From contig OZ244839.1 of NCBI GenBank assembly GCA_965220825.1, positions 2,301,377 to 2,365,376 on the forward strand: 64,000 nt of DNA. The letters run 5' to 3'. A program made the position numbers and the translations under genes. Below, in pieces: positions 15,389-34,469 of this stretch. Numbering within the stretch: position 1 is the stretch's first letter; each line of letters starts with the position of its first letter. The notes beneath the pieces were generated by a model. The model was given only the letters and a program-made list of their open reading frames with translations. It was not told the origin of the DNA and did no database searches. Origin of the DNA: Alphaproteobacteria bacterium (lineage in GTDB: Bacteria > Pseudomonadota > Alphaproteobacteria > UBA828).

Positions 15389-15403
15389 GCCGGGAGCTGC
15401 GCC

Positions 15404-16162
15404 ATGAGCAAGCCGACCGTTCTGATCACCGGCGCCGGCATCGGAATCGGTGAGGCCACGGCGCTCGCCTTCGCCGACGCGGGCTATCACGTCTACGTCA
15501 CCGACGTGCTCGACGAAGAGGGCCGGGAGACCGTCTCGGCCATCGAGGCGAAGGGCGGCAGTGCGAGCTTTACCCGTGTCGACGTGACCGACAGCGCCAA
15601 TGTGGACGCGGCCGTTGCCGCCGCCATTGCCGCCACGGGGCCGCTGGACGCGGTGGTCGCCAATGCGGGCATCGCCCACAAGGTGCCGCTGCCCGAAATG
15701 AGCGACGAAAAGTGGGACCACACGCTGGATGTGGACCTCAAGGGCGTGTTTCGCGTCTGCCGCGCGGCGGCGCCCGCCATGCGCGAAGCGAAGCGCGGCG
15801 CCATGGTGGCGGTCTCCTCGGTGATGGGGACGAGCTATGGCTGGCACGACCATGTGCAGTACAACGCCGCCAAGGCCGGTGTGGTCGGCCTGGTGCGGGG
15901 GCTCGCCTGCGACCTCGGCGGCGACGGTATCCGCGTCAACGGGATCGCGCCCGGCTTCATCAAGACGGCGCAGGCGCTTTCCACCGTGCACTCGGTGGGG
16001 CTCGCGGGGCTGGAGGCGGCGGCCGACTATATTCCGCTCGGCCGCTACGGCGAGGCGGAGGACATCGCCTCCGTCATCCTCTTCCTCTGTTCCGACGGCG
16101 CGCGCTATGTGAGCGGCCAGACGCTGATCGTGGACGGCGGCCTCACCGTCGGCCGCTATTGA
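15404..16162 (+). CDS. SDR family oxidoreductase
   Basis: TGAGIGIGEA Rossmann motif, NAGI, YNAAK catalytic motif. Confidence 0.85.
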   Translation: MSKPTVLITGAGIGIGEATALAFADAGYHVYVTDVLDEEGRETVSAIEAKGGSASFTRVDVTDSANVDAAVAAAIAATGPLDAVVANAGIAHKVPLPEMSDEKWDHTLDVDLKGVFRVCRAAAPAMREAKRGAMVAVSSVMGTSYGWHDHVQYNAAKAGVVGLVRGLACDLGGDGIRVNGIAPGFIKTAQALSTVHSVGLAGLEAAADYIPLGRYGEAEDIASVILFLCSDGARYVSGQTLIVDGGLTVGRY

Positions 16163-16183: not shown

Positions 16184-16795
16184 TCAGCGGCCGGCGTCCT
16201 CTCCCAGCACGGCGCGGCGGAAGCGGTCCTTCAGATAGGGGCCGTTGCGCGGCGGCAGTACCCGGGGCAGCGGCTCGGCCCTGACCTTCACGGCAAGGAA
16301 GGTGGGACCCGGCGCCTCGTGGACGAGCGCAAGCGCGCCCTCGAGCCCGGCTTCGTCGGCGACCGTCCGCGCCTCCCGGAAGCCCGCGGCCTCGGCGGCG
16401 CGGGCAAGGTCCGCGCCATAGGCCGTGTGGCTCGGCTGCATGCCCGTCTCGCCGTGGCGTTCATTGTCGAGGACCGCGATCGCGAGGTTCTCCGGCGCCT
16501 GGGTCGCGACGGTGGCGAGGCAGCCGAGGCCCATCAACATGTCGCCGTCTCCGGTGAGCACCACCACGCGCCGGGCGGGCTGCGCCAGCGCGAGGCCGAG
16601 CCCGATCATGGACGCATTGCCCATGGCGCCCCACAGCGAGAAGTGGCGCACATTGTCGCCGAGGGCGGCGCAGTCCCAGGTCGCGGAGCCGAGACCCGGG
16701 ATCACCAGCGTATCCTCCCGGCCTTCGAGCAGCATCGCCACCGCTTCGCGCCGGCCGAGCGTGGTGGCGGGTTGGCTTCGCGCCCGGGCGTTCAT
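16184..16795 (-). CDS. comE: Sulfopyruvate/phosphonopyruvate decarboxylase beta subunit (ComE-like, TPP-binding C-terminal domain)
   Basis: GDGDMLMGLGCLATVA...NLAIAVLDNERHGETGMQ TPP-binding GDG-x-N motif. ~203 aa. ATGA overlap with the alpha subunit gene. The ORF-track ORF at 16184..17077 is a spurious extension. Confidence 0.7.
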   Translation of the reverse strand: MNARARSQPATTLGRREAVAMLLEGREDTLVIPGLGSATWDCAALGDNVRHFSLWGAMGNASMIGLGLALAQPARRVVVLTGDGDMLMGLGCLATVATQAPENLAIAVLDNERHGETGMQPSHTAYGADLARAAEAAGFREARTVADEAGLEGALALVHEAPGPTFLAVKVRAEPLPRVLPPRNGPYLKDRFRRAVLGEDAGR

Positions 16796-17319
16796 CGCGT
16801 CTCGAAGCGTTTCGCGCCGATCACGCGCTGTCCGATCAGGACGGCGGCTGCGGCTTCGCTCTCGAAGGCGAGCGCGGCGGCCGCGGCGACGGTCTCGCCG
16901 GTGTCGGCCTCGTCGTCCACCCGCGAGACGATCACGCCGCATTGCGTGAGGTGCGCCGCGGCCCCCTGACCCATGGGAAGCTGCCAGGGATTGGTCTCGC
17001 CCCATTCGCCCCGCATGGTCACCAGGGCGAGAAACGGAAAGAGGCAGCTGCGGATCAGCGATAGAGCGGCGACGCAATTGCCGACGCCGCTCGACTGCAT
17101 CAGCAGCACCGCGCGCTCGCCGCCGAGCCAGGCGCCGGCGGCGAGCGCCGGGCCTTCCTGCTCATGGGCGAGGAGAACCGGGCGCATGGCGGGGTCGGCA
17201 TGGCAGAGCGCGAGCAGCCCGTCGAGACCCGCATCCGGCACATAGGCGACTTGCCGAACGCGGGCGTCCGCGAGCGCGCGATGGGCCTGCGCGCCCCAGC
17301 CGCACCGGGGAGCGCTCAC
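16792..17319 (-). CDS. comD: Sulfopyruvate/phosphonopyruvate decarboxylase alpha subunit (ComD-like, TPP pyrimidine-binding domain)
   Basis: VAYVPDAGLDGLLAL...LAHEQEGPALAAGAWLGGERAVLLMQSSGVGNCVAAL, typical of the TPP enzyme N-terminal domain. 175 aa. Confidence 0.7.
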   Translation of the reverse strand: MSAPRCGWGAQAHRALADARVRQVAYVPDAGLDGLLALCHADPAMRPVLLAHEQEGPALAAGAWLGGERAVLLMQSSGVGNCVAALSLIRSCLFPFLALVTMRGEWGETNPWQLPMGQGAAAHLTQCGVIVSRVDDEADTGETVAAAAALAFESEAAAAVLIGQRVIGAKRFETR

Positions 17320-18051: not shown

Positions 18052-18240
18052 TCCTCGTTCAGGACGTTTGCGACGCCGGGGTTTCTTCGGCCGTCAGGTT
18101 GGCAAGCTATTCGGCCGACCTTTGTCCGCAAACTGCCCCTTTTTGGTGCGCGGGTCTCCAGGCCCGCGCACCAAACTTGTCATTGGGGTCTCCCAACCTC
18201 GTTTCAAGAGCCGCGTCTCATAGCTGTCTGAACGTGCACA
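18052..18240 (+). mobile_element. IS-derived MITE-like repeat, copy 1 (shortened: the internal hairpin is collapsed to a 10-bp stem)
   Basis: Shares the left end tcctcgttcaggacgtttg(a/c)gacgc, the core ggtttcttcggccgtcaggttggcaagctattcggcc, the hairpin arm ggtgcgcgggtctccaggcccgc and the right end ccaacctcgtttcaagagccgcgtctcata(g/c)ctgtctgaac with copies at 19573-19868 and 55452-55784. Confidence 0.7.
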
Positions 18241-19572: not shown

Positions 19573-19868
19573 GTGCAAGTTCAAACAGGTACGAGACGGG
19601 GCTCGTGAAACGGGTTTTGGGCTCTCCGAAGCTGTCGGTGGACACATCAACCGCTTCGGAGACCCCATGGTCGGTTTGGTGCGCGGGTCTCCAGGCCCGC
19701 ATGTTTTTGTTTTTCGAGAAGAAGAAAAATGCGGGCCTGGAGACCCGCGCACCAAAAAAAGGGGCAGCGCGTTGGGGCGACGCGCGACCGCCCATAACGC
19801 CGGCGGAATATTTTTCCAACCTGACGGCCGAAGAAACCTCAGCGTCTCAAATGTCCTGAACGAGGAGA
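19573..19868 (-). mobile_element. IS-derived MITE-like repeat, copy 2 (inverted relative to copies 1 and 3). Full 23-bp-arm hairpin at 19678-19753.
   Basis: The reverse complement matches copy 1/3 end to end. Hairpin ggtgcgcgggtctccaggcccgc-N30-gcgggcctggagacccgcgcacc. Flanked by the direct repeat (G)ATCGGT on both sides. Confidence 0.7.
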
Positions 19869-19958: not shown

Positions 19959-20606
19959 ATGGCATCGGACATCGACATCTACAAGCACCAGAATTTCGGC
20001 AATCGGATCGGCTTCGGAGAGCGGCCGGCGCTTCTGATCGTAGACTTCGTCAACGGGTTCACCGATCCGAACAAGTTCGGCGGCGGCAACATCCAGGAGG
20101 CCATCGCGAAGACGGAGACCCTGCTCGCGGCCTGCCGGCAGCGGGGCGTCGCGGTCGCGCACACGCGCGTGATCTTCGCGGACGACGGCGCGGACGCCAA
20201 CGTGATGTGCCTCAAGGTGCCGGCGCTCACCACCCTCACCGAGGACGCGCCGGAGAGCCAGATCGTGGATCGCCTCGCGCCCCGCCCCGGCGAGATCGTG
20301 GTGCGCAAGCGCGTACCCTCCGCCTTCTTCGGGACGGACCTGGCGCCCGCCTTCGCCCTGCAGCGCATCGACACGGTGATGGTGGCGGGCTGCACCACCA
20401 GCGGCTGCGTGCGCGCCTCCGTGCTGGACGCCATGTGCCACGGCTTCCGCCCGGTTGTGGTGACCGACTGCGTCGGCGACCGGGCGCTCGGGCCGCATGA
20501 AGCCAACCTCTTCGACATGGGCCAGAAATACGCCGATCTCGCGACTTGCGACGAGGCCATCGCCGCGCTGCCGGCCCGCACGACGCCGGCGCAAGCCGCG
20601 GAATAG
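19959..20606 (+). CDS. Isochorismatase-family cysteine hydrolase (N-carbamoylsarcosine amidase/ureidoacrylate amidohydrolase-like)
   Basis: LLIVDFVNGF, catalytic Cys context VMVAGCTTSGCVRASVLDA, ~215 aa. Confidence 0.75.
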   Translation: MASDIDIYKHQNFGNRIGFGERPALLIVDFVNGFTDPNKFGGGNIQEAIAKTETLLAACRQRGVAVAHTRVIFADDGADANVMCLKVPALTTLTEDAPESQIVDRLAPRPGEIVVRKRVPSAFFGTDLAPAFALQRIDTVMVAGCTTSGCVRASVLDAMCHGFRPVVVTDCVGDRALGPHEANLFDMGQKYADLATCDEAIAALPARTTPAQAAE

Positions 20607-20617
20607 GGCGCGCCCCC

Positions 20618-21646
20618 GTGAAGGCCGTCCTGATCAGGGAGCATGGCGGCGTCGAGCGGCTCCGCCTGGAGGAGGTCGAGACGCCCGAGCCCGGCGAGGG
20701 CGAGGTGCTGGTGCGAATCCGGGCGAGCGGGATCAACCATCTGGACCACGACGTGCGCGAGGGCATCTCCGGCATTCCGGTCTCGCTTCCCCATGTGCCG
20801 GGCAGCGAAGGGGCGGGCGAGATCGCGGCGCTGGGGCCCGGGGTAAAGGGCCTGGAGGTGGGCATGCGGGTCGCCATCCACTTCGCCCAGGGGGATCCGC
20901 ACTCCGAGCCCTGGCTCAGCGGGCTGGACGGCGTGGACTTCACCCATGGGCGGATCGGCGCGAGCCGCTGGGGCACCCATGCGGAGTACACCGTCTCCGA
21001 CGCCCGCTCGGTGCTCCCGCTGCCCGAGGGCCTCCCGTTCGAGACCGCCGCCGCCGGCATGATCGGCTTCGGCACAGCTTGGCACATGACGGTGACTCTC
21101 GGCCGCGTGCAGGCGGGAGAGACGGTGCTGGTGAACGCGGCGGGCAGCGTGGTCGGCTCTTCGGCGATCCAGGTCGCCGTGCTCCACGGCGCCCGGGTGA
21201 TCGCAAGTGCGGGCTCGGCCGCCAAGCTCGAGAAGGCACGCGCCCTCGGCGCCGCCGACGTCATCGACTACACGCACCAGAACATTCGGGACGCGGCCCT
21301 GAGCATGACCGATGGGCGGGGCGTGGACCTCGTGATCGAGAGCGTGGGCGGCGAGGTGCTGCGCCAGAGCATCGACGCGGTCTGCTTCAACGGCCGCCTC
21401 GTCACCTGCGGCGCCCATGCCGGGGAGACGGTGCCGTTGAACGTCATCGAGCTCTTCCGCAAGCACATGACGATCCACGGCAGCCATCTGTGCGGCCGCC
21501 GGGAGCTCGCGCGCGTCTTTCAGCTCATGGCCGAGGGCGTGCTCACCCCGGCCATCCACAAGGTCTATCCCCTGGCGGACATCCAGGAGGCCGCGCGGCG
21601 CACCGCGAACCGGGACTTCTTCGGCAAGATGGTGCTGACGCCCTGA
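20618..21646 (+). CDS. Zinc-type alcohol dehydrogenase/quinone oxidoreductase (MDR family)
   Basis: MKAVLIREHGG...GEGEVLVRIRASGINHLD, Rossmann motif VLVNAAGSVVGSSAIQ. GTG start assumed at 20618. Confidence 0.8.
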   Translation: MKAVLIREHGGVERLRLEEVETPEPGEGEVLVRIRASGINHLDHDVREGISGIPVSLPHVPGSEGAGEIAALGPGVKGLEVGMRVAIHFAQGDPHSEPWLSGLDGVDFTHGRIGASRWGTHAEYTVSDARSVLPLPEGLPFETAAAGMIGFGTAWHMTVTLGRVQAGETVLVNAAGSVVGSSAIQVAVLHGARVIASAGSAAKLEKARALGAADVIDYTHQNIRDAALSMTDGRGVDLVIESVGGEVLRQSIDAVCFNGRLVTCGAHAGETVPLNVIELFRKHMTIHGSHLCGRRELARVFQLMAEGVLTPAIHKVYPLADIQEAARRTANRDFFGKMVLTP

Positions 21647-21655
21647 CGCAGCGGC

Positions 21656-23068
21656 TCAGCGCGCCGCGCCGGCCGTGCCGCGCTTGAGGAACCTGCCGCC
21701 GCCTTCCCTGCCGAGCCAGCGCTCGCCGTCCACGATCAGTTCGCCGCGCAGGAACACCTTGCGCACCCGGCCCGTGACCTCGCGGCCCTCGAAGAGCGAG
21801 TAGTCGATGCGGCTGTGGTGCTCGGCGGCGCGGATGGTCCAGACCTCCCGCGGGTCGAACAGCACGATGTCGGCGTCCGAGCCCACGGCGATGGTGCCCT
21901 TGCGCGGGAACAGGCCGAAAAGCTTTGCCGGTGCGGTGGCGGTGAGCTCCACATAGCGGTTGAGCGAGAGGGCGTTGTTGCGCACGCCGCCGTCATAGAC
22001 CAACGGCATGCGGGTCTCGAGCCCCGGCGCGCCGTTGGGAATCTTGCTGAAATCGTCCCGGCCCAGATCCTTGGAGAGGCGCAAGCCCAGCACGTTCTCG
22101 CTGAAGCAGAAGGGGCAATGGTCGGTCGCGATGACCTGGAGGTCGTCGGTCTTCAGGCCCCGCCAGAGGGCGTGCTGATGCGCCTTGCCACGGAGCGGCG
22201 GGGTCATGACGTATTTCGCGCCGTCGAAGCCCGGCCGGTCATATTCCTCGTCGGTGAGGAAGAGATAGTGCGGGCAGGTTTCGGCATGGACCGGCAGGCC
22301 CCGGTCCCGCGCTTCCGTCACCGCATCCAGCGCCTCGCCGGCGGAGAGATGCACCAGATAGACCGGCGCCTCGGCGAGTTCGGCGATACGGATCACCCTG
22401 TGGGTCGCCTCGCCCTCCATGATGGTCGGGCGGGTCAGCATATGCCATTTGGGGCTGGTGTTGCCGGCGGCGAGCGCTTCCCGCACCAGCACGTCGATGA
22501 CATGGCCGTTCTCCGCATGGACCTGGATCATGCCGCCCTCGGCGCCGGCAAGCCGCATGGCCTGGAAGATCGCCCCGTCGTCGATCATCAGCACGTCCGG
22601 ATAGGCGGTGAAGAGCTTGAAGGTGGAGACGCCCTCGTCCCGCATCAGGGTCTTCATGTCGGCGAGGGACTGCTCGTTCACGTCCGTCATGATCATGTGG
22701 GCGCCCATATCGACGGCCGCGACGGCGGCGCGTTCGTGCCAGTCCGCGAGGCCCGCGAGCGGGCTCTCGCCCTTCACCTGCGCGGCGAAGTCCACCACCG
22801 TGGTCGTGCCGCCGAAGGCCGCGGCCTTCGAGCCGGTATAGAAGGTGTCCGCGGTGCGGGCGGGGCCGAAATCCCAATCGAGATGGGTGTGCACGTCCAC
22901 GCCGCCGGGGAAGACCAGCAAGCCGGACGCGTCGTGGGTCTCCACATCCTCGCCGAGCGGCAGGTCGCGCCCGATCATGCGCACCCGGCCGTCTTCCATG
23001 AGGATATCGGCGGTGTAGTCGTCCACCGCCGTTACGATGCGCCCGTTCCGGATCGCCGTCGCCGCCAT
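21656..23068 (-). CDS. D-hydantoinase/dihydropyrimidinase (cyclic amidohydrolase)
   Basis: GGVDVHTHLD metal-binding motif, STFKLF carbamylated-Lys motif, 470 aa. Confidence 0.8.
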   Translation of the reverse strand: MAATAIRNGRIVTAVDDYTADILMEDGRVRMIGRDLPLGEDVETHDASGLLVFPGGVDVHTHLDWDFGPARTADTFYTGSKAAAFGGTTTVVDFAAQVKGESPLAGLADWHERAAVAAVDMGAHMIMTDVNEQSLADMKTLMRDEGVSTFKLFTAYPDVLMIDDGAIFQAMRLAGAEGGMIQVHAENGHVIDVLVREALAAGNTSPKWHMLTRPTIMEGEATHRVIRIAELAEAPVYLVHLSAGEALDAVTEARDRGLPVHAETCPHYLFLTDEEYDRPGFDGAKYVMTPPLRGKAHQHALWRGLKTDDLQVIATDHCPFCFSENVLGLRLSKDLGRDDFSKIPNGAPGLETRMPLVYDGGVRNNALSLNRYVELTATAPAKLFGLFPRKGTIAVGSDADIVLFDPREVWTIRAAEHHSRIDYSLFEGREVTGRVRKVFLRGELIVDGERWLGREGGGRFLKRGTAGAAR

Positions 23069-23238
23069 CGCCGCCTCCAGACGCCGTGGAATCCCGACGC
23101 ATCATGCCACGCGGCCCGGGGAGGGTCCACGCTCCGGCAGCCCTGGTGCCGCATGAACCGGCGGCCCGGGGGAGGCGCTGCGCCCCGCGCGCAGCGGTGG
23201 CCCCTCGCGACCGCCTCTCCTGCGGTAAGCGGGCTCCT

Positions 23239-25020
23239 TCAGGCGCCGTTGCGAAGGGCGGCGGTGGCGGCCTCGTCCACCGCGCCGGCCTCGTCGAGGG
23301 CCACGCGGTAGACGTCGCGGGCGGTCTCGGCGGTGATCCAGCGTTCGCGGACATCCGCCGCCACCCGTTCGGCGGCGCGCTCGGTGGGCGGGCCGTAGCC
23401 CCCACCGCCGCAGGAATAGGAGACGATGGTGTGGCCTTCGGGGATGACGGCCTGGGCGCAGGGCTCCAGCCGATGGAGGTCGCCGTTGGGATCGCGGCGG
23501 AACTGGTCGGCGCGCCCGCCTTCCGTGCCGCCTCGCGCGCCCTCGGGCGCGGTGACGTTGCCGTCGCTCACATAGCCCACCTCGAGATCGCCCTCGGTGG
23601 GGCCGAACTCGCAATAGACGCCGGACGCGCCCCGCGTGCGCCCATGACCGCCGCTGTCCCGCACGAAGGAGCGCCCGCGCACATGGAGGGGAAAGCGCAT
23701 TTCGTCGAGCTCGATGGAATCCTGATACGACATGCCCGCATTGCCCAGATGGCCGATGGAGATCCATGCGTCGGCCTGCGGGCTGGCCGCGCCGCCGCCC
23801 CAGCCGAGGAAGATCTGGTTGACGTAAGGCCCCTTGGTCTTTTCGCTCCGGCCGGAGATCACGCCGAGCGAGGGCGGGATGATGGAGCCCGCGCTCGCCA
23901 TGCCGTAACCGTCGCCGAGGTCGGCGATGGCCCGCGCCACCGCGTTGCCGACCCGATCGGCGAGATTGGTGGTGGCGACCGAGCAGCTCGTGGGATGCCG
24001 GGGTATCCCGGCGACGCTGTTCTCCCTGAGATGCATCCGGATGCGGCGGAACGAGCCGGTGTTGGTCGGCACCGCATCCGGGATGCTGTTGAACACCCCG
24101 AGCAACAGCGTGCTCTCGCAGCAGGCCTGGGAAAGATTGAGCCCGCAGGGCATGGCGTCCGGATTGTCGCGGAGGTCGATGTCGATCATGGCGTCGTCGG
24201 GCTTGACGTCGACGACCACCTTCACCGGGATGCCTTCCTCGGCGTTGGGGAAGGGGTCGTGCATGGACGAGGCTTCGGCCCGGCCCGGCGGCATCTTGCG
24301 CACCGCGGCGATCATCATCTGCTCGCTATAGTCGAACCACTGCTCGGCGAAGCGGTCCAGCGTCTCCCAGCCCACCTCGGCGCCGAAGGCGAGGATCTCC
24401 CGCTCGCCGATCCGCGCCGCGCCAAGCGCCGCCAGATAGTCGCCCCACCACTGGTCGGGCACGCGGATGCGGAGCCGGCACATGCGCACGATGTCCTCGA
24501 TGTCCTCGTAATCCCGCTGGATCTGGACGGCGGGGAAGATCAGCGCGCCTTCCTCATACACGTCCCGCGCGCTGCCGTGATAGGTGGTGGGGATGGAGTT
24601 GCCGCAATCGGCCTGGTGCGCTTTCGCCACCATGGTGAACCGATGCACGCCCGCCTCGTCGATCACCGGCACCAGGGTGGTGTGGTCCGCCGGATGCGAG
24701 CAGCCGTGATAGGGCGAGTTGTGGAGGAAGGCGTCGCCCCGCCGGAGCTCCGGATGAAAGGCCTGCATCGCCTCGCACATCATGTCGGCACCCCGCAGCA
24801 CGTGGATCGGCAGGCTCTCATTGACCGTGAGCAGGGAATTGTCGGCGGTGACGATGCAGCAGGAGAAATCCCGCGCGCTGTTGAGGACGCCGGACCGCCC
24901 GGTGCGCAGCAGAGTGTTGGCCATCTTGGCGCAGATCGCCTCCATCCGCTTGTTCAGGATGGCCATCTGCACGCCGTCCAACGCGCCGTCCCGGTTGAGA
25001 GAGAAGGGATTCGTCGCCAT
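23239..25020 (-). CDS. hyuB: Hydantoinase B/oxoprolinase family protein (HyuB, set 1)
   Basis: 593 aa. The N-terminus DGALDGVQMAILNKRMEAICAKMANTLLRTGRSGVLNSARDFSCCI is typical of HyuB/N-methylhydantoinase B. Confidence 0.85.
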   Translation of the reverse strand: MATNPFSLNRDGALDGVQMAILNKRMEAICAKMANTLLRTGRSGVLNSARDFSCCIVTADNSLLTVNESLPIHVLRGADMMCEAMQAFHPELRRGDAFLHNSPYHGCSHPADHTTLVPVIDEAGVHRFTMVAKAHQADCGNSIPTTYHGSARDVYEEGALIFPAVQIQRDYEDIEDIVRMCRLRIRVPDQWWGDYLAALGAARIGEREILAFGAEVGWETLDRFAEQWFDYSEQMMIAAVRKMPPGRAEASSMHDPFPNAEEGIPVKVVVDVKPDDAMIDIDLRDNPDAMPCGLNLSQACCESTLLLGVFNSIPDAVPTNTGSFRRIRMHLRENSVAGIPRHPTSCSVATTNLADRVGNAVARAIADLGDGYGMASAGSIIPPSLGVISGRSEKTKGPYVNQIFLGWGGGAASPQADAWISIGHLGNAGMSYQDSIELDEMRFPLHVRGRSFVRDSGGHGRTRGASGVYCEFGPTEGDLEVGYVSDGNVTAPEGARGGTEGGRADQFRRDPNGDLHRLEPCAQAVIPEGHTIVSYSCGGGGYGPPTERAAERVAADVRERWITAETARDVYRVALDEAGAVDEAATAALRNGA

Positions 25021-25061
25021 CGCTCGCCTCGTTCGTTCCGCCGCGTCCGCGCGCTTCGCGG

Positions 25062-27122
25062 TCAGGGCTCGATCAACAGGCTGCCGGAGGATCGGCGCGA
25101 GGCCTTCGCGCCCGGATCGACCACGACAGTGGTGAAGGAGGATTCGATGATGGCCGGGCCTTCCACCATTTCGCCCGGCACCATGCCCTCGAAGCGCACC
25201 ACGCGCGCCCGGATACGGCCGGTGTCCGCGAAATAGACCTCCCGTCCGCCCTCGCTCTCCGGCCCGCCGCCGCCCTCCACCTTGAGGGTCGCGCCTTCGC
25301 GCAGACGGCAGCGCACATTGGCGCGCCAGCCCACGACCTCGATCGCGGACTCGGCATCGGCGAAAGTGAAGAGCGCTTCATGGGTACGGTGGAAATCCTC
25401 CACGAATCCGGCGAGCGCCTGATCGTTCTCGATCCGGCCGCTGCGGAGCGGCACCTCGATCTCCCAGATCTGGCTGGGATAGCGCGCTTCGGCGGTGAAC
25501 TCCACCACCTGCTCCAGGGAACCCTTGCCCGGCCCGTCGATGAACGCCCGGCAGGCGGTCTCGAGCTCCGCCAGCAGGGCGTTGACGCCATTGAAATCGA
25601 AGTCGGCGGTGGAGGTGTAGAGGGTGCCGCTGTACTCCGCCCGCAGGTCCGAGATCAGCGCGCCATGGGCGCTGAGCGCGGCGGCCACCTCCGGCAGAAT
25701 CACCTGCCGGCAACCGAGCCGACGCGCGATGGCGACGGCATTGAGCCCGGCCGCCCCGCCGCCGCCGACGATCGCCGCCTCCTGGGGATCGATGCCCTGG
25801 TTGACGGTGATGTCCTCGATGGCGTGCACCATGTTCTCGGTGGCGACGCTCATGATGGCGGCCGCGGCCTCATGCAGGTCGAGACCGAGCCTGGCTCCCA
25901 CCTGGCGCTCGATGGCCGCCGCCGCCGCGCGCGTCTCCAGCGTCATGGCCCCGCCGAGGAAATAGTCCGGGTCGATCCAGCCGAGGACGACGGAGGCGTC
26001 CGTCACGGTGGGCTCGGTCCCCCCCGCGCCGTAGCACACCGGCCCCGGCACGGCGCCCGCGCTCCGGGGCCCCACATGAAGGAGATTGCCCTCGTCCACC
26101 CAGGCGATGCTGCCGCCGCCGGCGCCGATGCTGCGCACGTCGACGGCGGGGAAGCCGGTCATGTGGCCGCGATAGGGCTGGCCGATCCAGGTCTCGCGCG
26201 TCCAGGGAATCCGCCCGTCGCGCACCAGGCTCACGTCGAACGTGGTACCGCCGGTGTCGGCGATGATCGCCGTCTCCATGCCGCTGTCGGCCTGGGCGCA
26301 GGCGCGGCCCGCCACCGGCGCCATGGCGGGACCGGAATTGATGGAGTGGATCGGCGCCTTCGCCATGTCGGCCGCGTCCATGGCGCCGCCCTGGGTGGTG
26401 ACCACCAGAACCCGCCCGCCGAAACCGGCATCGGCGAGCCGCGCCGCGAGGCCGCCGAGATAATCCCCCATCAGCGGCTTGAGGGACGCATCGATACAGG
26501 TGGAGGACGCGCGGCGATATTCCCTGAGCGAGGGGTTGAGCGCGTGGGACAGCGTATAGGGGACGCCCGGCAGGTGGCGGTCGAGCAGTTCGCCGACGCG
26601 GAGTTCGTGCGCCGGGTTGACGATGGACCAAAGCAGGCAGACCCCGACCGCCTCCACCTCTTCGGCGGCGAGGCGCTCCGCGATCTCCACCACGCGCGCT
26701 TCGTCCAGCGGCTCAAGCGCCGTGCCGTCATAGGCGACGCGTCCGGGCACCTCGTAGGTAAGCGACCGCGGCACATAGGGCGCGGGGTAGGGCACGGTGA
26801 AGTTGAAGGGCTCGATACGCCCGCCTTCGCGGAACACCAGCACGTCCGGGTGGCCCTCGGTGGTGAGGAAGGCGGTCCGCGCCGTATTGCCGGTCACGAT
26901 CGCGTTGATCGCATGGGTCGTGCCATGGATCAGCATGTCGCCCCGGGCGAGAAACGCGGCGCGCTCGAGGCCCGCATCCTCCGCCGCCAGTGCGAGCGTA
27001 TCCAGAACGCCCGCCACCGGGTCCGCCGGCGTGGTCGGCGCCTTGTACATGCGGAGCCCGCCATCGTCCGTTTCGACGACCAGGTCCGTGAAGGTTCCAC
27101 CAGTGTCTACCGCGAATCGCAT
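25062..27122 (-). CDS. hyuA: Hydantoinase A/oxoprolinase family protein (HyuA, set 1)
   Basis: MRFAVDTGGTFTDLV..., ASKHA-fold ATPase motifs (DTGGTTFDVS). Start taken at the conserved MRFAVD, not the 5' extension in the ORF track. Confidence 0.85.
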   Translation of the reverse strand: MRFAVDTGGTFTDLVVETDDGGLRMYKAPTTPADPVAGVLDTLALAAEDAGLERAAFLARGDMLIHGTTHAINAIVTGNTARTAFLTTEGHPDVLVFREGGRIEPFNFTVPYPAPYVPRSLTYEVPGRVAYDGTALEPLDEARVVEIAERLAAEEVEAVGVCLLWSIVNPAHELRVGELLDRHLPGVPYTLSHALNPSLREYRRASSTCIDASLKPLMGDYLGGLAARLADAGFGGRVLVVTTQGGAMDAADMAKAPIHSINSGPAMAPVAGRACAQADSGMETAIIADTGGTTFDVSLVRDGRIPWTRETWIGQPYRGHMTGFPAVDVRSIGAGGGSIAWVDEGNLLHVGPRSAGAVPGPVCYGAGGTEPTVTDASVVLGWIDPDYFLGGAMTLETRAAAAAIERQVGARLGLDLHEAAAAIMSVATENMVHAIEDITVNQGIDPQEAAIVGGGGAAGLNAVAIARRLGCRQVILPEVAAALSAHGALISDLRAEYSGTLYTSTADFDFNGVNALLAELETACRAFIDGPGKGSLEQVVEFTAEARYPSQIWEIEVPLRSGRIENDQALAGFVEDFHRTHEALFTFADAESAIEVVGWRANVRCRLREGATLKVEGGGGPESEGGREVYFADTGRIRARVVRFEGMVPGEMVEGPAIIESSFTTVVVDPGAKASRRSSGSLLIEP

Positions 27123-27283
27123 GTCTTCCCCGGTTCTTCGCCGTTGTCGCGCGCAAAGCCCCCCGGAACGATGCGCCGCAAGACAAATAGAGCGCTTACG
27201 GCAAAAAGGAAACCGCACGGACGGCCCGGCGCCGGCAAGGCTTGCTCCGTGAGCGCGCCCCTCCCCCGGCGGGGGGCCCGCCC

Positions 27284-30200
27284 TCAGGCGGTGGCGGCGC
27301 GGGGCTCGTCGGACAGGGGGTGGGCGAGGTTCGGAAGCATTTCCTTGGGGCAGATCTGCCAGAACTTGCCGGCCTCCAGCGCCCAGTCCGCCAGCAGCCG
27401 CTCACTGTGGCGGGAGCGGGTCTCGGCGTGGTGTTCGGCGATCAGCCCGCGGCACTCGTCCTCCCAATAGGCGCTTTCGATCCGCTGCCAGATCACCGTG
27501 TCCCCGTTGATGCGCCCCTCGAAGGAATCGTCCGCGTCATAGACGAACGCCATGCCGCCGGTCATCCCGGCGGCGAAATTGTCCCCCACGGGCCCGAGAA
27601 TCGCGGCGACGCCGCCGGTCATGTACTCGCAGCCATTGGAGCCGCAGCCCTCCACCACGGCGCGCGCGCCGGAGTTGCGCACGCAGAAGCGCTCCCCCGC
27701 CTGACCCGCGGCGAACAGCTTGCCGCCGGTGGCGCCGTAGAGCGCGACATTGCCGAGGATGGTGTTCTCGCTGGAGATCAGCCGGCTGGATGTGGGAAGG
27801 CGGAGCACGATCGTGCCGCCCGAGAGGCCCTTGCCCACATAGTCGTTCGCGTCGCCGATCACCAGAATCTTGAGGCCCTGCACGGCCCAGGCGCCGAGAG
27901 ACTGGCCGGCGGAACCGCGGAGGCTCACGGTGAAATAGTCCGGTGGCAGGCCGACCATGCCGAAGCGCCGTGTGAGCGCGGAGGAGAGCCTTGCGCCGAT
28001 CGAGCGGTGCGTGTTCCGCACCGTGTAGGCGAGCTGCATCTTCTCCGGCGCCTCGATTCGGCTCTCCCCCCGCAGCGCGCGGGTGGAATCGTCGGCGTCC
28101 CGGATCATCTGCTCGTCCAGCGTGTCCGGCACCTCGATGCGCCCCTTGCGGGTGGAATGGCGGGGAAGGTCGCCGGGATCCGCCTGTACCAGCAGCGGGT
28201 TGAGATCGAGATCGTCCAGATCCGCGCTGCCGCGGCTGACCTGGCGCAGGAGCTCGGTGCGCCCGGTGATCTCGTCCAGCGACCGCGCGCCGAGGGAGGC
28301 CAGTATCTCCCGCACCTCCTCGGCGATGAAGCTGAAGAGGTTGACCACCTTCTCAGGGGTGCCCTCGAACTTGGCGCGGAGCGCCGAATCCTGGGTGCAG
28401 ATGCCGACGGGGCAGGTGTTGCTGTGGCATTGGCGCACGAGGATACATCCCATGGCGACAAGCGAGGCGGTGCCGACGCCGAACTCCTCGGCCCCCAGCA
28501 TGGCGGCGATCGCGACATCGCGCCCGGTCTTGATGCCGCCGTCCACCCGCACGGTGGTGGTGTGGCGGAGGCGGTTGAGAGTGAGCACCTGGTGGACCTC
28601 GGCGAGGCCCATCTCCCACGGTACGCCGGCATATTTCACACTGCTCTGGGGCGAGGCGCCGGTGCCGCCGTCATGGCCCGAGACCAGAATCACGTCCGCC
28701 TTGGCCTTGGCGACACCGGCGGCGATGGTGCCGATGCCGGCCTCCGCCACGAGCTTCACCGTGACGCGGGCGCGCGGGTTGATCTGCTTCAGGTCGTAGA
28801 TGAGCTGCGCGAGGTCCTCGATGGAATAGATGTCGTGGTGCGGCGGCGGCGAGATGAGGGTGACGCCCGGCGGCGCATGGCGCAGACGCGCGATCTCCGC
28901 CGTGACCTTGAAACCCGGAAGCTGCCCTCCCTCGCCGGGCTTCGCCCCCTGGGCCATCTTGATCTCGATCTCGCGGCAGTGGTTGAGGTACTCCGCCGTC
29001 ACGCCGAACCGGGCGGAGGCGATCTGCTTGACTGCCGACGAGGCGTTGTCGCCATTGTCGCGGGGGGTGAAGCGCGCCGGGTCCTCCCCACCCTCGCCGC
29101 TGCAGGAGGCCGCGCCGATGCGGTTCATGGCGATCGCCAGCGTCTCGTGGGCCTCCTTGGAGAGTGCGCCGTGGGACATGCTGCCGCTGGTGAAACGCTT
29201 GCGTATCTCGGTAATGGACTCGACCTCTTCCAGGTCGACCGGGGTGCGCGCCCGCTTGAAGTCGAGCAGATTACGCACATGGATGGGCGGGAGCGCGTAG
29301 ACGCCCTCGGCGTATTTCCGATAGACGGCATAGGAATCGGTGGCGAGCGCCGTTTGCAGCCGGTGCACCAGCGGCCCGTCGAAGGCGTGGACCTCGCCCG
29401 AGCGGCGGTATTTGAGGAGTCCGCCGATGGGAAGCACCACCGGGCTTTCCTCCCAGGCCTTGCGGTGCTGGGCCAGTACGCGGCGCTTGATACCGCTGAG
29501 CCCGATGCCGGAGAGCCGCGCCGTCATGCCGGGGAAGAAATCGGCGACCAGCGCCCGGCTCAGCCCCACCGCCTCGAAATTGTAACCGCTCCGATAGGAG
29601 CTCAGGACGGAGATCCCCATCTTGGAGAGTATCTTGAGGAGGCCCGCGTCCACCGCTTCCCGATAGCGGCGTTCGCAGTCCGCGAGGCTCATGGCGCCGA
29701 ACAATCCGCGCTCATGCCTCTCCGCCACGCTTTCCAGCGCAAGATAGGGGTTGATGGTGGTGACGCCGATGCCGATCAGCACCGCGAAGTGATGCACGTC
29801 GAGGCACTCGGCGGCGCGCACATTGATCGAGGTAAAGGTGCGGAGCCGCTGGCGCACGAGATGGCTGTGGACCCCGCCCGCGGCGAGGATCATGGGGATG
29901 GGCGCGCGATCCTCCGAGACATTCTCGTCGGTGAGAACCAGATGGGTGGCACCGCCGCGCACCGCTTCCTCCGCCTCGCCCCGTATGCGCTCGATGGCGG
30001 CCGTGAGCTCGCCATGGCCGGACGCGGCGTCGAAGGTGCAGTCCAGCGTTACGGCGTCATCACCCATATGGGCGTGGAGCGCCGCGAACTCGCCATTGGT
30101 GAGCAACGGGGAATCGAGTTGCATGAGCGCCGTCTGTTCCGGCGCGTCGGCAAAGATGTTCCCCATATTGCCGAGCCGTGTCTTGAGGCTCATCACGCTG

Positions 30201-31843
30201 TATTCGCGCAAGGAATCGATGGGCGGGTTCGTGACCTGCGCGAACATCTGGCGGAAATAGTGATGGAGGCCCCGGTAATGGCCGGAGAGCACGGCGAGCG
30301 GCGTGTCGTCGCCCATGGAACCCACGGGCTCCTTGCCGTCCTCCGCCATGGGGTGGAGCACCATCTCGAGCTCCTCCATGGAGTAGCCCACCATGCGCTG
30401 GCGGCGGCGCAGCTCGTTGCGGGCGAACATGCGGGGCGCGAGGCTGCCGGCGACGAGCGCGGAGGCATCCACCACGTCGGCCGTCCAGGCGGCGTAGGGC
30501 TTCGCGGCGCTGAGCGCGTCCTTGAGTTCCCGGTCCCGGTGGAGGCGGCCTTCGGCGAGTTCCACGGCGATCATCTGGCCGGGGCCCAGTCGCCCGTTCT
30601 CCACGATGTCGTCCGGCGAGAGCGGCACCATGCCGGTCTCCGAGCCCACCACCAGCATGCCGCTCTCGGTGACGCTGTAGCGCATGGGCCGGAGCCCGTT
30701 GCGGTCCATCCCGGCGAGGATCCAGGTACCGTCGGTGGCGGCCACCGCGGCCGGGCCGTCCCAGGGCTCCATCATGCAGTTGCAGTAGCTGTAGAAGGCG
30801 CGGTGCGCCGCCGGCATGGCGGGTTTGCGGGACCAGGCGTCGGGGATCAGCATGCTGTGGACGGCGGGCAGCGGGCGGCCTGCGCGTACCAGCGCCTCCA
30901 GCACCGCATCCAGCGCCATGGAATCGGAGGCGCCGGGCGCGATGAGCGGGAACAGCTCGTTGTTGTGGGAGCCGAAGACGCGGCTCGCCGCCCGCGTTTC
31001 GTGGCTCGCCATCCAGTTCTTGTTGCCGCGGATCGTGTTGATCTCGCCGTTGTGCGCCACCATGCGGAAGGGCTGGGCGAGCTGCCAGGTGGAGAAGGTG
31101 TTGGTCGAATAGCGCTGATGGAAGATGGCGAACCGGGAGACGAAGCGCTCGTCCAGCAGATCCGGATAGAAGGCGGTGAGCTGCTCCGCCAGGAACATGC
31201 CCTTGTAGATCAAGGAGCGGCAGGAGAGAGAGCAGATATAGAAGCCGGTGATGTGATGGGCGAGCACCTGCTTCTCGATGCGCCGGCGCACCACATAGAG
31301 ATCGATCTCGAACTGGGCGTCGTCCACGCCCCGCTCGTTGGAGATCATGACCTGCTCGATCTCGGGGCGGACGGCATTGGCGTTCTCGCCGATCACCGAC
31401 GAATCGATCGGCACCTGCCGCCAGCCATAGATGCCGTGGCCGAAGCCCAGCACCTCGGTCTCGACGATGCTGCGGCATGTGTCCTGGGCGCCGAGGTCCG
31501 TCTTGGGCATGAAGACCATGCCGACGGCGAGCCGGCCCGCCCGGGTGCCGTGGCCGGTGTTCTCGATATGCTCCTTGAAGAAGTCCTGGGGGATCTCCAC
31601 ATGGATGCCGGCGCCGTCGCCCGTCTTGCCGTCGGCATCCACCGCGCCACGGTGCCAGACCGCCTTGAGCGCATCGATACCGGCCTGCACGACGTCGCGC
31701 CGCGCCTCTCCGTCGAGCGCCGCGACGAAGCCGACGCCACAGGCATCGCGCTCGGCCTCCGGCAGATAGAGGCCGTCGCGCGCGAGCGCCCGGCGGGCTT
31801 CGGCGCCCGCTGCCTGTCCGCCGCCCGGCACCGCGCGATTCAC
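27284..31843 (-). CDS. gltB: Glutamate synthase (NADPH) large subunit
   Basis: 1519 aa. CGVGF Ntn amidotransferase start, FMN and 3Fe-4S regions (CHSNTCPVGI), C-terminal GXGXG domain. The GTG start overlaps the gltD TGA. The upstream ~390 aa of the 1908-aa track ORF is read-through. Confidence 0.95.
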   Translation of the reverse strand: MNRAVPGGGQAAGAEARRALARDGLYLPEAERDACGVGFVAALDGEARRDVVQAGIDALKAVWHRGAVDADGKTGDGAGIHVEIPQDFFKEHIENTGHGTRAGRLAVGMVFMPKTDLGAQDTCRSIVETEVLGFGHGIYGWRQVPIDSSVIGENANAVRPEIEQVMISNERGVDDAQFEIDLYVVRRRIEKQVLAHHITGFYICSLSCRSLIYKGMFLAEQLTAFYPDLLDERFVSRFAIFHQRYSTNTFSTWQLAQPFRMVAHNGEINTIRGNKNWMASHETRAASRVFGSHNNELFPLIAPGASDSMALDAVLEALVRAGRPLPAVHSMLIPDAWSRKPAMPAAHRAFYSYCNCMMEPWDGPAAVAATDGTWILAGMDRNGLRPMRYSVTESGMLVVGSETGMVPLSPDDIVENGRLGPGQMIAVELAEGRLHRDRELKDALSAAKPYAAWTADVVDASALVAGSLAPRMFARNELRRRQRMVGYSMEELEMVLHPMAEDGKEPVGSMGDDTPLAVLSGHYRGLHHYFRQMFAQVTNPPIDSLREYSVMSLKTRLGNMGNIFADAPEQTALMQLDSPLLTNGEFAALHAHMGDDAVTLDCTFDAASGHGELTAAIERIRGEAEEAVRGGATHLVLTDENVSEDRAPIPMILAAGGVHSHLVRQRLRTFTSINVRAAECLDVHHFAVLIGIGVTTINPYLALESVAERHERGLFGAMSLADCERRYREAVDAGLLKILSKMGISVLSSYRSGYNFEAVGLSRALVADFFPGMTARLSGIGLSGIKRRVLAQHRKAWEESPVVLPIGGLLKYRRSGEVHAFDGPLVHRLQTALATDSYAVYRKYAEGVYALPPIHVRNLLDFKRARTPVDLEEVESITEIRKRFTSGSMSHGALSKEAHETLAIAMNRIGAASCSGEGGEDPARFTPRDNGDNASSAVKQIASARFGVTAEYLNHCREIEIKMAQGAKPGEGGQLPGFKVTAEIARLRHAPPGVTLISPPPHHDIYSIEDLAQLIYDLKQINPRARVTVKLVAEAGIGTIAAGVAKAKADVILVSGHDGGTGASPQSSVKYAGVPWEMGLAEVHQVLTLNRLRHTTTVRVDGGIKTGRDVAIAAMLGAEEFGVGTASLVAMGCILVRQCHSNTCPVGICTQDSALRAKFEGTPEKVVNLFSFIAEEVREILASLGARSLDEITGRTELLRQVSRGSADLDDLDLNPLLVQADPGDLPRHSTRKGRIEVPDTLDEQMIRDADDSTRALRGESRIEAPEKMQLAYTVRNTHRSIGARLSSALTRRFGMVGLPPDYFTVSLRGSAGQSLGAWAVQGLKILVIGDANDYVGKGLSGGTIVLRLPTSSRLISSENTILGNVALYGATGGKLFAAGQAGERFCVRNSGARAVVEGCGSNGCEYMTGGVAAILGPVGDNFAAGMTGGMAFVYDADDSFEGRINGDTVIWQRIESAYWEDECRGLIAEHHAETRSRHSERLLADWALEAGKFWQICPKEMLPNLAHPLSDEPRAATA

Positions 31844-33276
31844 GAGGCGAGCGCCCGGGCGGGCGCATCCGCCGCCGCGCCCTCCTGAATGTAGTCGTGA
31901 ACGGCGCGGGCGGCGTCCCGCCCATCCTTGATCGCCCAGACGACGAGGGACGCGCCGCGCACGATGTCGCCCACGGCGAAGACGCCGTCGAGGCTCGTCA
32001 TCATGGTATCCCAGTCCACCAGCACCGTGCCCCAGCGGGTGGTCTTGAGGTCCGGCGCATCGAACAGGGTCGGCAGGTCCTCCGGGTCGAAGCCGAGCGC
32101 CTTGATGAGCAGGTTCGCGGGCACGGTGTAGCTGGAGCCGGAAATGGCCTGCGGCGTCTGCCGGCCGGAAGCGTCCGCCACGCCGAGATGGATGCGCGCG
32201 GCGCGCACGCCTTCCACCGTCTGCGTGCCGAGCACCGCCTCGGGCGCGGACAGCCAGACGAACTCCACGCCCTCCTCCTCGGCGTGGCTCACCTCCTGCA
32301 TGGAGCCAGGCATGTTGGCCCGGTCCCGCCGGTAGAGGCAGCGCACCGAGCGCGCGCCCTGGCGCACGGCCGTGCGCACGCAATCCATGGCCGTGTCGCC
32401 GCCGCCCACCACGACCACGTCCCTGCCGCGGGCATCCAGCGTACCGTCGTCGAACGCCGGCACCGGATCGCCGAGCCCCTTGCGGTTGCTCGCCACCAGA
32501 TAGGTCATCGCCTGGAAGATGTTGTCGAGACCGATACCGGGGATGCGGATATCGCGGGCCTTGTAGGCGCCGGTGGCCAGCACCACCGCGTCGTGATGCT
32601 CGCGCAGCGCGGCAAGGGAACGATCCCGGCCGATCTCCACATTGAGGTGGATATGGACCCCGCCCTCCGCCAGCAGATCGACCCGCCGCTGGACGATGGA
32701 CTTCTCCAGCTTGAAGTTCGGGATGCCGTAGATCAGCAGCCCGCCGGCGCGGTCGTAACGGTCGTAGACATGCACCTGATAGCCGAGCCGGCGGAGTTCC
32801 TCCGCGGCGGTGAGACCCCCGGGCCCCGCGCCCACGATGCCGACGGACTGAGGCCGCTCCATGCGGGGACGCGGCGGCTTCACCCAGCCGTTCTCGAAGG
32901 CCGTATCGGTGATATGGCGCTCCACCGCGCCGATGGTGACGGCCTCGAAGCCCCGCTCGATCACGCAATTGCCTTCGCAGAGCCTGTCCTGGGGGCAGAT
33001 ACGGCCGCATATCTCCGGCATGTTGTTGGTGGCCGCGGAGACCTCATAGGCCTCCTCGAGCCGGCCTTCCGCCGTCAGCATGAGCCAGTCGGGGATGTTG
33101 TTGGCGACCGGACAGTGAATCTGGCAGAAGGGTATCCCGCATTGGGAGCAGCGCGCCGCCTGGTCCGCCGCCGCCCGGATCCGGAAGCGCTCATACACCT
33201 CGCCCCAGTCGACGCGGCGCTGAGACGCCGCGCGCTTGTCGGGCTTCTGCTGCGGCAAGGTCGTGAATTTCAACAT
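31840..33276 (-). CDS. gltD: Glutamate synthase small subunit (NADPH-dependent)
   Basis: Cys clusters (CSQCGIPFCQIHCP), two Rossmann motifs (VGIVGAGPGGL, VVVVGGGDTAMD). Alternative start at 33318. Confidence 0.9.
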   Translation of the reverse strand: MLKFTTLPQQKPDKRAASQRRVDWGEVYERFRIRAAADQAARCSQCGIPFCQIHCPVANNIPDWLMLTAEGRLEEAYEVSAATNNMPEICGRICPQDRLCEGNCVIERGFEAVTIGAVERHITDTAFENGWVKPPRPRMERPQSVGIVGAGPGGLTAAEELRRLGYQVHVYDRYDRAGGLLIYGIPNFKLEKSIVQRRVDLLAEGGVHIHLNVEIGRDRSLAALREHHDAVVLATGAYKARDIRIPGIGLDNIFQAMTYLVASNRKGLGDPVPAFDDGTLDARGRDVVVVGGGDTAMDCVRTAVRQGARSVRCLYRRDRANMPGSMQEVSHAEEEGVEFVWLSAPEAVLGTQTVEGVRAARIHLGVADASGRQTPQAISGSSYTVPANLLIKALGFDPEDLPTLFDAPDLKTTRWGTVLVDWDTMMTSLDGVFAVGDIVRGASLVVWAIKDGRDAARAVHDYIQEGAAADAPARALAS

Positions 33277-34443: not shown

Positions 34444-34469
34444 CGGTGCGGAGCGCGCCCGGAGGCCGG

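Follow-up and report, generated by a model that had tools for sequence, protein, structure and literature searches.

A NicF-like amidohydrolase beside ATP-dependent and ATP-independent ring-opening enzymes in an alphaproteobacterium: a candidate module for cyclic imides

Introduction

When genes for a HyuA/HyuB-type hydantoinase lie next to a gene for an isochorismatase-family amidohydrolase, does the organism that carries them degrade creatinine? The question is raised by a stretch of 64,000 nucleotides (64 kb) from an Alphaproteobacteria bacterium of the lineage UBA828 (assembly GCA_965220825.1, contig OZ244839.1, positions 2,301,377 to 2,365,376 of the forward strand), which we refer to as the window, and within it by five genes at 19959-27122. 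They encode an isochorismatase-family cysteine amidohydrolase (here ICH), an MDR-family protein that a preliminary description had called a zinc alcohol dehydrogenase (here ADH), a D-hydantoinase/dihydropyrimidinase-type cyclic amidohydrolase (here DHT), and the two subunits, HyuA and HyuB, of an ATP-dependent cyclic-amide hydrolase. In metagenomes of marine bacteria and sponge symbionts, the annotations "N-methylhydantoinase A/B" and "N-carbamoylsarcosine amidase" are routinely taken as creatinine catabolism, and the preliminary description likewise saw in this locus exactly the enzyme pair of the creatinine pathway.

We find that ICH looks, by sequence comparison, like a maleamate amidohydrolase rather than like the amidase of the creatinine pathway, and that the five genes may constitute a catabolic module for heterocycles with a -CO-NH-CO- group, most likely five-membered imides of the maleimide/succinimide type. 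We put the probability of this reading a little below one half (about 0.45). The DNA examined is this one window, such that gene absences reported for the source genome refer to the window. Gene families were assigned with Pfam and NCBIfam and coding frames by the GC content at third codon positions (GC3), since at approximately 69% G+C raw lists of open reading frames (ORFs) from the window are noisy. The gene neighbourhood was sampled in the 80 best species-level loci for ICH, onto which the window proteins were mapped, plus a dozen further look-ups, and in the relatives with Pfam annotation up to 10 kb of flank on each side was covered.

Results

ICH (19959-20606, forward strand, 215 amino acids) matches PF00857 with E=1e-38 and 133 bits and has the isochorismatase-like fold with the Asp-Lys-Cys triad (D29, K117, C150). 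Its best solved relative is NicF (3OT4/3UAO, E=1e-76), with 61% identity over 202 residues. The next matches in the PDB are two N-carbamoylsarcosine amidases, 26ST (E=2e-48, 44% identity) and 1NBA (E=2e-37, 38%), and then 4L07 (E=1e-32, 34%), which we take to be the maleamate amidase Ami of P. putida S16. According to the BiuH paper, 3UAO is NicF, a maleamate amidohydrolase whose triad consists of Asp29, Lys117 and Cys150 and in which Thr146 and Cys150 form the oxyanion hole. At the NicF numbering, ICH carries D29, K117, T146 and C150, and furthermore R175. In an alignment of 30 ADH-adjacent hydrolases, 30 other NicF-like hydrolases and four PDB proteins, the loop F40-G-G-G-N44 as well as Q11, A48 and R70 were alike in ICH and NicF and different in the amidases. 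Across the two sets of 30 sequences 44 positions are invariant, and at all four positions that separate the ADH-adjacent hydrolases from the other NicF-like group, the group of the window has the residue of NicF.

The phylogeny of the hydrolase points in the same direction. In a bootstrapped neighbour-joining tree (200 replicates, 31 sequences, about 200 columns), NicF and all the locus hydrolases were monophyletic in 200 of 200 replicates, and this grouping leaves out both N-carbamoylsarcosine amidases, Ami, and the other subfamily member that the window encodes, at 34618-35250. As the preliminary description had anticipated, ICH does not cluster with isochorismatases or nicotinamidases; it groups with NicF, and its relationship to RutB is distant (36 bits, with the cutoff at 378; E=2e-7 in the PDB search). 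The proposal that it is an N-carbamoylsarcosine amidase was not supported, given that the nearest characterised relative is NicF, at 61% identity as compared to 38-44%, and that the amidases were excluded in every replicate.

The second subfamily hydrolase (34618-35250, reverse strand) has the two N-carbamoylsarcosine amidases as its top PDB matches, with about 105 bits and above NicF. Its gene directly follows a four-gene ABC transporter (35304-39544) and lies near a glutamine-synthetase-like gene (40234-41631), with a tRNA-Met gene (34468-34543) just downstream.

HyuA (25062-27122, reverse strand, 686 amino acids; domains Hydant_A_N, Hydantoinase_A and Hydant_A_C) is the alpha, ATP-binding subunit of the ASKHA type, and HyuB (23239-25020, reverse strand, 593 amino acids; PF02538 at 380 bits) the beta, hydrolytic and metal-binding subunit. 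The family of ATP-dependent lactamases and hydantoinases is characterised by the motifs DxGGTxxD, DxGGT and GxxPGP, and roles have been assigned to residues of its beta subunit (caprolactamase paper, PMC8453981). The corresponding ATP-site motifs of HyuA are DTGGTFTD at residue 6, DTGGT at 289 and GAVPGP at 356. In HyuB, D51, H109, D112 and H135 align to the metal tetrad D41, H99, D102 and H124 of CapB, and Y147 aligns to Tyr136 of CapB, the proposed acid/base residue. Thus, with all motifs in place, the earlier assignment to the ATP-dependent hydantoinase family stands. Its narrower part, an N-methylhydantoinase, does not, because the caprolactamase 6YRA scores higher than the solved N-methylhydantoinase 7HK5 for both subunits (HyuA, 422 bits to 6YRA_A versus 331; HyuB, 167 versus 111). 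HyuAB, to judge from these scores, is not specifically like the solved N-methylhydantoinase. At the same time, HyuA and HyuB reach 550 and 230 bits with the NCBIfam models for CapA and CapB, whose cutoffs are 1000, and both are far under every NCBIfam equivalog cutoff. Of 15 pocket positions that are not metal ligands, 10 differ between HyuB and CapB, and the HyuB pocket is more polar (S48, H424, N427, S431).

The source genome is unusually rich in members of the hydantoinase/oxoprolinase family and has at least four HyuB paralogs. The window itself contains a further HyuA (53284-55416) with a HyuB (51512-53680), both on the reverse strand and only 34% and 26% identical to the pair of the locus, as well as a fused HyuA-HyuB (61512-63998, forward strand) that runs off the window end. 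The fused protein was considered as a better N-methylhydantoinase and discarded, since it has 293 bits to 7HK5, as compared to 331 for HyuA of the locus. Another HyuB paralog, P0156, with 66% identity, is located on the same 3.28 Mb contig and has no match in the window.

DHT (21656-23068, reverse strand, 470 amino acids) reaches 568 bits with the equivalog model TIGR02033 for dihydropyrimidinase/D-hydantoinase (cutoff 393) and matches the Bacillus and Brevibacillus D-hydantoinases 3SFW (E=1e-145) and 1YNY (E=1e-142) over their full length. Its residues H60, H62, K151, H184, H240 and D316 align to H58, H60, K150, H183, H239 and D315 of 1YNY, which we take to be the ligands of a binuclear metal site with a carboxylated lysine. 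The STFKLF motif, from which the gene had originally been recognised as a D-hydantoinase, is present at residues 148-153. No genes of reductive pyrimidine degradation (PydA/PreAT, beta-ureidopropionase) were found in the window or in the flanks of the relatives. D-hydantoinases and dihydropyrimidinases hydrolyse cyclic imides of the succinimide type, and so does the N-methylhydantoinase of P. putida 77.

The ADH gene (20618-21646, forward strand, GTG start, 342 amino acids) encodes a protein with the domains ADH_N and ADH_zinc_N (PF08240 and PF00107), i.e., GroES-like plus Rossmann MDR. Its only cysteines are at positions 256, 264 and 292. Because residues 1-255 are free of cysteine, neither of the two canonical zinc sites can form. 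The protein has the motifs GINHLD and GSEGAG, its best NCBIfam match is the PIG3 quinone-oxidoreductase family, below the cutoff, and its PDB neighbours are 2EIH, the enoyl reductase AibC (5K1S), quinone oxidoreductases and the 2-haloacrylate reductase 1WLY. Hence, of the designation Zn-ADH the MDR fold can be kept and the zinc must be given up, for the catalytic as well as for the structural site, and the protein would be better described as being of the quinone-oxidoreductase/ene-reductase type. In Marinibaculum pumilum, an ADH homolog with 67% identity has neither ICH nor Hyu genes as neighbours. In all five proteins of the locus, the catalytic residues are intact.

All five genes lie at, or within a few bases of, the positions at which the preliminary description had placed them. 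GC3 periodicity backs their coding character, with one coding frame being singled out across the whole of 19.9-27.2 kb, and an independent ENA assembly of the same genome gave identical gene calls at the locus. The window differs from that assembly only in five 1-nt deletions, at 11222, 11802, 12626, 14970 and 15707, none of which is inside the locus. Rather than a single operon, the genes make up two units that converge, ICH->ADH and hyuA->hyuB->dht. The ICH stop codon is separated from the GTG start of ADH by 11 nt, and the stop codons of ADH and dht are 9 nt apart; the spacing is 41 nt between hyuA and hyuB and 170 nt between hyuB and dht. A terminator-like hairpin with a T-run (27210-27227, reverse strand), which is a pattern match from a consensus scan, separates the hyuA start (27122) from the gltB stop (27284) and marks the upstream boundary of the hyuA-hyuB-dht unit. 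Upstream of ICH there is a 476-nt spacer with a repeated palindromic element, and beyond it are genes for a UbiH-type hydroxylase and a TetR-like protein with a COQ9 domain. Since housekeeping genes thus stand on both sides (ubiH; gltD-gltB), the module is the 7.2 kb block between them. Rfam models gave only miRNA matches far under threshold over the locus, which are hairpin artefacts, since they lie on the palindromic repeat.

This repeat resembles REP/MITE elements. It has arms of 41 nt and the core GCGGGTCTCCAGGCCCGC, occurs at 19675-19756, 55600-55680 and 18150-18167, and gave five matches as compared to 0.05 expected by chance. The copies are in intergenic spacers, including those upstream of ICH and upstream of the second HyuA.

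Do the five genes belong together? Among the 80 best species-level loci (GTDB species), 26 have ICH and ADH side by side, at ICH identities of 62-86%. Convergent to them, DHT is found in 16 of these 26 loci, HyuB-HyuA in nine, and both in three. Within 10 kb, the 13 loci L003-L015 have DHT only opposite ICH-ADH, L002, L016 and L030 have DHT as well as HyuB-HyuA, and L019-L023 and L029 have HyuB(-HyuA) without DHT. The convergent core of ICH-ADH and (DHT)-HyuB-HyuA is kept while the flanking genes change completely between lineages. It spans alpha- and gammaproteobacterial lineages, down to 64-67% identity for ICH and 70-76% for HyuA/HyuB, and the recurrence of the same genes amid differing flanks argues that the grouping goes beyond chance. 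The nearest relatives are metagenome-assembled genomes of uncultured Alphaproteobacteria/Rhodospirillales, several of them from sponges judging by the bin names, and among the more distant carriers are marine Rhodospirillaceae and Gammaproteobacteria. The gene set, then, travels together in marine and sponge-associated bacteria. The neighbourhood of an ATP-dependent and an ATP-independent ring opener had been regarded as unusual, but it recurs in two lineages, in which DHT occupies the same slot and which are not sisters on the ICH tree. HyuB homologs with about 62% identity occur in unrelated contexts, and therefore the HyuB clade specific to the module would start at roughly >=70% identity, i.e., at least 70%.

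Some features of the relatives vary around this core. A gene for a SnoaL-like protein of 127-129 amino acids lies just upstream of ICH in most of them. In L019-L023, a second HyuB paralog (about 65% identity) directly follows HyuB in the order HyuA-HyuB-HyuB', for instance at 13104-14927 of L020; in L082, a relative with 86% identity, HyuB' is split into three ORFs (13330-15108) and apparently a pseudogene, and in the window it is gone without trace. A search of the 170-nt gap between dht and hyuB for a remnant of this second paralog found none. In L017, L019, L020, L022 and L023, the slot of DHT in the window is filled by a luciferase-like gene of the Mer/F420 class that comes after ADH and has the same orientation as ADH (for example L019, 7323-8339), and a fatty-acid-desaturase-like membrane protein is often encoded beside it. 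An analogy to RutA/RutB via this luciferase-like gene was rejected in view of its Mer/F420 class and its RutA score of 26 bits against a cutoff of 498.

Clues to the fate of the product come from further neighbours. In the NicF-like loci that lack ADH (L033-L081), the genes for an FAD monooxygenase, ICH and a protein of the Asp/Glu-racemase superfamily follow each other in this order, often together with a family-III coenzyme A (CoA)-transferase and an HMG-CoA-lyase-like gene (e.g., L078, 12070-13296; L039, 13331-14092). No canonical nic genes were recognised in these loci, and the set may represent another uncharacterised heterocycle pathway. The Asp/Glu-racemase superfamily includes maleate isomerase. 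That the slot after ICH is taken by a racemase-like gene in those loci and by the MDR reductase here suggests that both act on the product of the hydrolase. Within a few kb of the module, marine carriers encode MmgE/PrpD, a RipB/Ich-like (R)-enoyl-CoA hydratase (238 bits), an acyl-CoA dehydrogenase, a family-III CoA-transferase and an HMG-CoA-lyase-like protein, and in addition an EamA transporter and a kinase of the APH family; one soil lineage has a CoA-transferase and an HMGL-like lyase near it. These CoA-type neighbours of the relatives, none of which is in the window, would fit a C4/C5 dicarboxylate leaving the hydrolase.

Several other parts of the window deserve mention. At 27284-33318 (reverse strand), gltD for the small subunit (31840-33318) is followed by gltB for the large subunit (approximately 27284-31830), and a spurious ORF of 1908 amino acids spans both. 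The region 8510-16162 (forward strand) contains an ABC transporter, an SDR gene, and genes resembling the small (12664-13059) and large (12983-15388) subunits of N,N-dimethylformamidase, with DMFA2_C at 348 bits; the reading frames in this region depend on the assembly, because the five 1-nt deletions relative to the ENA assembly are there. Between the SDR gene and the COQ9-domain TetR-like gene, a thiamine-diphosphate enzyme is split into genes for an N- and a C-domain (16184-17319, reverse strand). It resembles the subunits of sulfopyruvate/phosphonopyruvate decarboxylases, with 130 bits to the beta subunit of sulfopyruvate decarboxylase, below the cutoff. Finally, an islet of low GC (44988-46111, forward strand; 62% versus about 69%) has two adjacent ORFs of 247 and 130 amino acids without the GC3 signature of the genome; the two may have been acquired horizontally as a pair and might represent a toxin-antitoxin system.

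Discussion

What reaction sequence would bring these five proteins together? We suggest that the ring of a cyclic imide is opened in one of two ways. The binuclear-metal enzyme DHT would hydrolyse the ring C-N bond without ATP, or HyuAB would open the ring with ATP, with the alpha subunit phosphorylating the lactim tautomer and the beta subunit hydrolysing it at the Asp-His-Asp-His metal site. The product would be an acid with a terminal amide, H2N-CO-X-Y-COO-, for example maleamate or succinamate, and this half-amide would be deamidated by the NicF-type Asp-Lys-Cys hydrolase to NH3 and a dicarboxylate. The zinc-free MDR protein would add an NAD(P)H-dependent reduction of a C=C or a carbonyl group, the likeliest target being the activated C=C bond of the imide, the half-amide or a maleate-type product. 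We infer the substrate class, the order of the steps, the role of the reductase and the status of DHT and HyuAB as alternatives.

The reasoning behind this proposal starts with the amidase. Once a ring has been opened, such an enzyme has a task only if a -CO-NH-CO- group was part of that ring, because hydrolysis then leaves a terminal amide or ureido group, and rings of precisely this kind are what D-hydantoinases and the HyuAB family act on. A plain lactam is disfavoured as the substrate, since its ring-opened product needs no amidase, and five-membered imides that yield half-amides of the maleamate/succinamate type are favoured because the hydrolase is NicF-like. The three configurations in the relatives (DHT only, HyuBA only, or both) suggest that the ring openers are alternatives that feed one amidase, rather than consecutive steps. 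The earlier view that ring openers stand here beside an amidase for the ring-opened product therefore remains, minus the contention that they are exactly the creatinine pair.

A number of observations weigh against this proposal. To begin with the hydrolase, the subgroup of ADH-adjacent sequences is poorly supported in the tree (13 of 200 bootstraps), and Ami shares 45% identity with the amidase 26ST as compared to 36% with NicF. Because Ami is nearer to 26ST than to NicF, the activities on maleamate and on N-carbamoylsarcosine are intermingled within the subfamily, and ICH may therefore, despite its place in the tree, act on ureido substrates. Such intermingling makes chemical sense, since maleamate (H2N-CO-CH=CH-COO-) and N-carbamoylsarcosine (H2N-CO-N(CH3)-CH2-COO-) are equal in backbone length; N-carbamoyl-glycine and N-carbamoyl-sarcosine are isosteres of acids of the maleamate/succinamate type. 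As for HyuB, its pocket residues are like those of neither caprolactamase nor N-methylhydantoinase, in low-confidence alignments at 25-28% identity. Furthermore, 13 close relatives have no HyuBA within 10 kb of ICH-ADH-DHT, and in one genome the HyuB ortholog (87% identity) and HyuA are neighbours of an IS66 transposase and distant from ICH-ADH-DHT. The linkage of HyuAB thus appears looser than that of ICH, ADH and DHT, and the separation in the one genome weakens the case for alternative openers. The SnoaL-like gene of the relatives has left no trace in the window (tblastn E>0.2), and genes of a CoA pathway, a transporter and a regulator were not found with the module in the window. The substrate that we assign to the MDR reductase is a guess. 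Lastly, the combination of a NicF-type hydrolase, a zinc-free MDR protein and HyuAB and/or a D-hydantoinase, in most cases accompanied by a SnoaL-like protein, was not found in the literature that was searched.

A more specific version of the imide proposal, which we consider doubtful, is an ATP-assisted imide pathway of marine and sponge-associated Proteobacteria, with HyuAB as imidase, the MDR protein as ene-reductase, deamidation by the NicF-type enzyme and DHT as the ATP-free opener. Substrates would be, for example, alkyl-maleimides from the breakdown of tetrapyrroles or imide-bearing natural products. The ene-reductase would remove the thiol-reactive double bond, and the alkyl-succinate or alkyl-maleate product would enter the CoA-dependent C5-dicarboxylate route in the relatives.

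The alternative that survives best is catabolism of creatinine/N-methylhydantoin, in which HyuAB would be the N-methylhydantoinase (EC 3.5.2.14), ICH the N-carbamoylsarcosine amidase (EC 3.5.1.59) that releases sarcosine, and DHT an enzyme for a second hydantoin or ureide. We regard it as unlikely, even though several points speak for it. ICH and the two solved amidases are members of one narrow subfamily; the substrate of these amidases is nearly isosteric with maleamate, and their activity is found on branches intermixed with those of maleamate amidases. HyuAB is of the right family with all motifs, and the adjacency of amidase and hyu genes is recognised in creatinine loci (cshA-hyuB of C. 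glutamicum). Some NCBI/JGI records name the homologs N-carbamoylsarcosine amidase or N-methylhydantoinase B, the relative L084 has a DAO-family oxidase gene beside hyuA, the closest relatives are sponge symbionts, and papers on sponge microbiomes discuss this pathway. Against it stand the NicF signatures of ICH, its higher identity to NicF and its grouping with NicF in all bootstrap replicates, whereas CshA of C. glutamicum is 60% identical to the Arthrobacter amidase. HyuA and HyuB are nearer to caprolactamase, and the route has no use for the MDR reductase, which is invariably linked, or for the frequent SnoaL-like gene. The 64 kb window and the flanks of the relatives yielded neither a creatinine deaminase/CodA homolog, which the preliminary description had named as a gene to look for, nor a creatininase or a sarcosine oxidase/dehydrogenase. 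Moreover, the window encodes two other HyuAB systems and another hydrolase of the subfamily, such that family membership alone cannot single out this locus.

Less likely still is a non-canonical route for pyrimidines or dihydropyrimidines, in which the MDR protein would reduce uracil/thymine or a downstream semialdehyde, DHT would open the ring with HyuAB as an ATP-driven alternative, and ICH would cleave off the ureido group in the manner of RutB. That DHT passes the dihydropyrimidinase equivalog model and that ICH-ADH-DHT is the steadiest trio in the closest relatives (13 loci, no HyuBA nearby) would agree with this, as would the ability of enzymes with the ICH fold to hydrolyse ureido-acids (RutB). 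In addition, one relative has a class-III aminotransferase gene beside hyuA, and the marine acyl-CoA dehydrogenase has acryloyl-CoA reductase as its closest counterpart and is encoded close to a PrpD-like gene, which would suit a route via 3-hydroxypropionate or propionyl-CoA. However, ICH is remote from RutB by the scores given above, and the NicF-like signature of its pocket fits substrates that are shorter by one atom than ureidopropionate or ureidoacrylate. There is no PydA/PreAT-type dehydrogenase, beta-ureidopropionase or pyrimidine permease nearby, and marine lineages keep ICH-ADH-HyuBA without DHT. Least likely of all, and again behind the creatinine route, is that ICH-ADH and hyuAB-dht are convergent operons without any relation to each other that happen to lie end to end in a hydantoinase-rich genome with its several HyuB paralogs: convergent transcription does not guarantee co-regulation, HyuAB is unlinked in some close relatives, and HyuB homologs of about 62% and an ADH homolog of 67% identity occur in unrelated contexts, but the convergent arrangement is kept across Alpha- and Gammaproteobacteria despite wholly changed flanks.

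How, then, does a module for imides compare with known systems? NicF of the nicotinate pathway of Bordetella bronchiseptica (3UAO/3OT4) shares with ICH the triad, Thr146, the FGGGN loop and R70. The nic cluster for nicotinate/2,5-dihydroxypyridine, however, comprises the genes for the hydroxylase NicC, the dioxygenase NicX, the deformylase NicD and the isomerase NicE, none of which flanks ICH in the window or in the ICH-ADH relatives; the partners of ICH are instead the MDR reductase, the D-hydantoinase and HyuAB. Since the nic genes are not nearby, any maleamate-like substrate must have a different source. The creatinine pathway (Arthrobacter, P. putida 77, C. glutamicum ATCC 14067) uses the same two enzyme families with the same logic of ring opening followed by deamidation, and in C. 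glutamicum the amidase and hyu genes are likewise adjacent, but the module has extra conserved members in the MDR reductase, DHT and, in the relatives, the SnoaL-like protein. The caprolactamase CapAB of P. jessenii (6YRA) is the best solved match of both Hyu subunits, which keep its ATP motifs, metal tetrad and Tyr136; in contrast to CapAB, HyuB has the more polar pocket, and the plain lactam product would need no amidase.

Catabolism of cyclic imides by an imidase and a half-amidase is reportedly found in Blastobacter sp. A17p-4. In A. nidulans, the degradation of nicotinate involves a reduction (HxnT/W), the cyclic imidase HxnM and the amidase HxnN. The order of redox step, imide opening and deamidation of the half-amide is the same as the one proposed here, with unrelated protein families. 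The imidases of those pathways adopt a fold like that of polysaccharide deacetylases, and their amidases belong to the amidase-signature family, both unlike the proteins of the module. We know of no ATP-dependent ring opener in those cyclic-imide pathways. Thus, each of the five proteins belongs to a known family, and it is their combination that differs from the nic, creatinine and known imide clusters.

For the interpretation of metagenomes, it follows that automatic creatinine readings may be wrong for a widespread gene set that has a NicF-like hydrolase and partners that the creatinine route does not need. If the imide proposal is true, the family of ATP-dependent lactamases and hydantoinases would gain a new class of physiological substrates, and it would be explained how these bacteria harvest nitrogen from heterocycles of the imide type.

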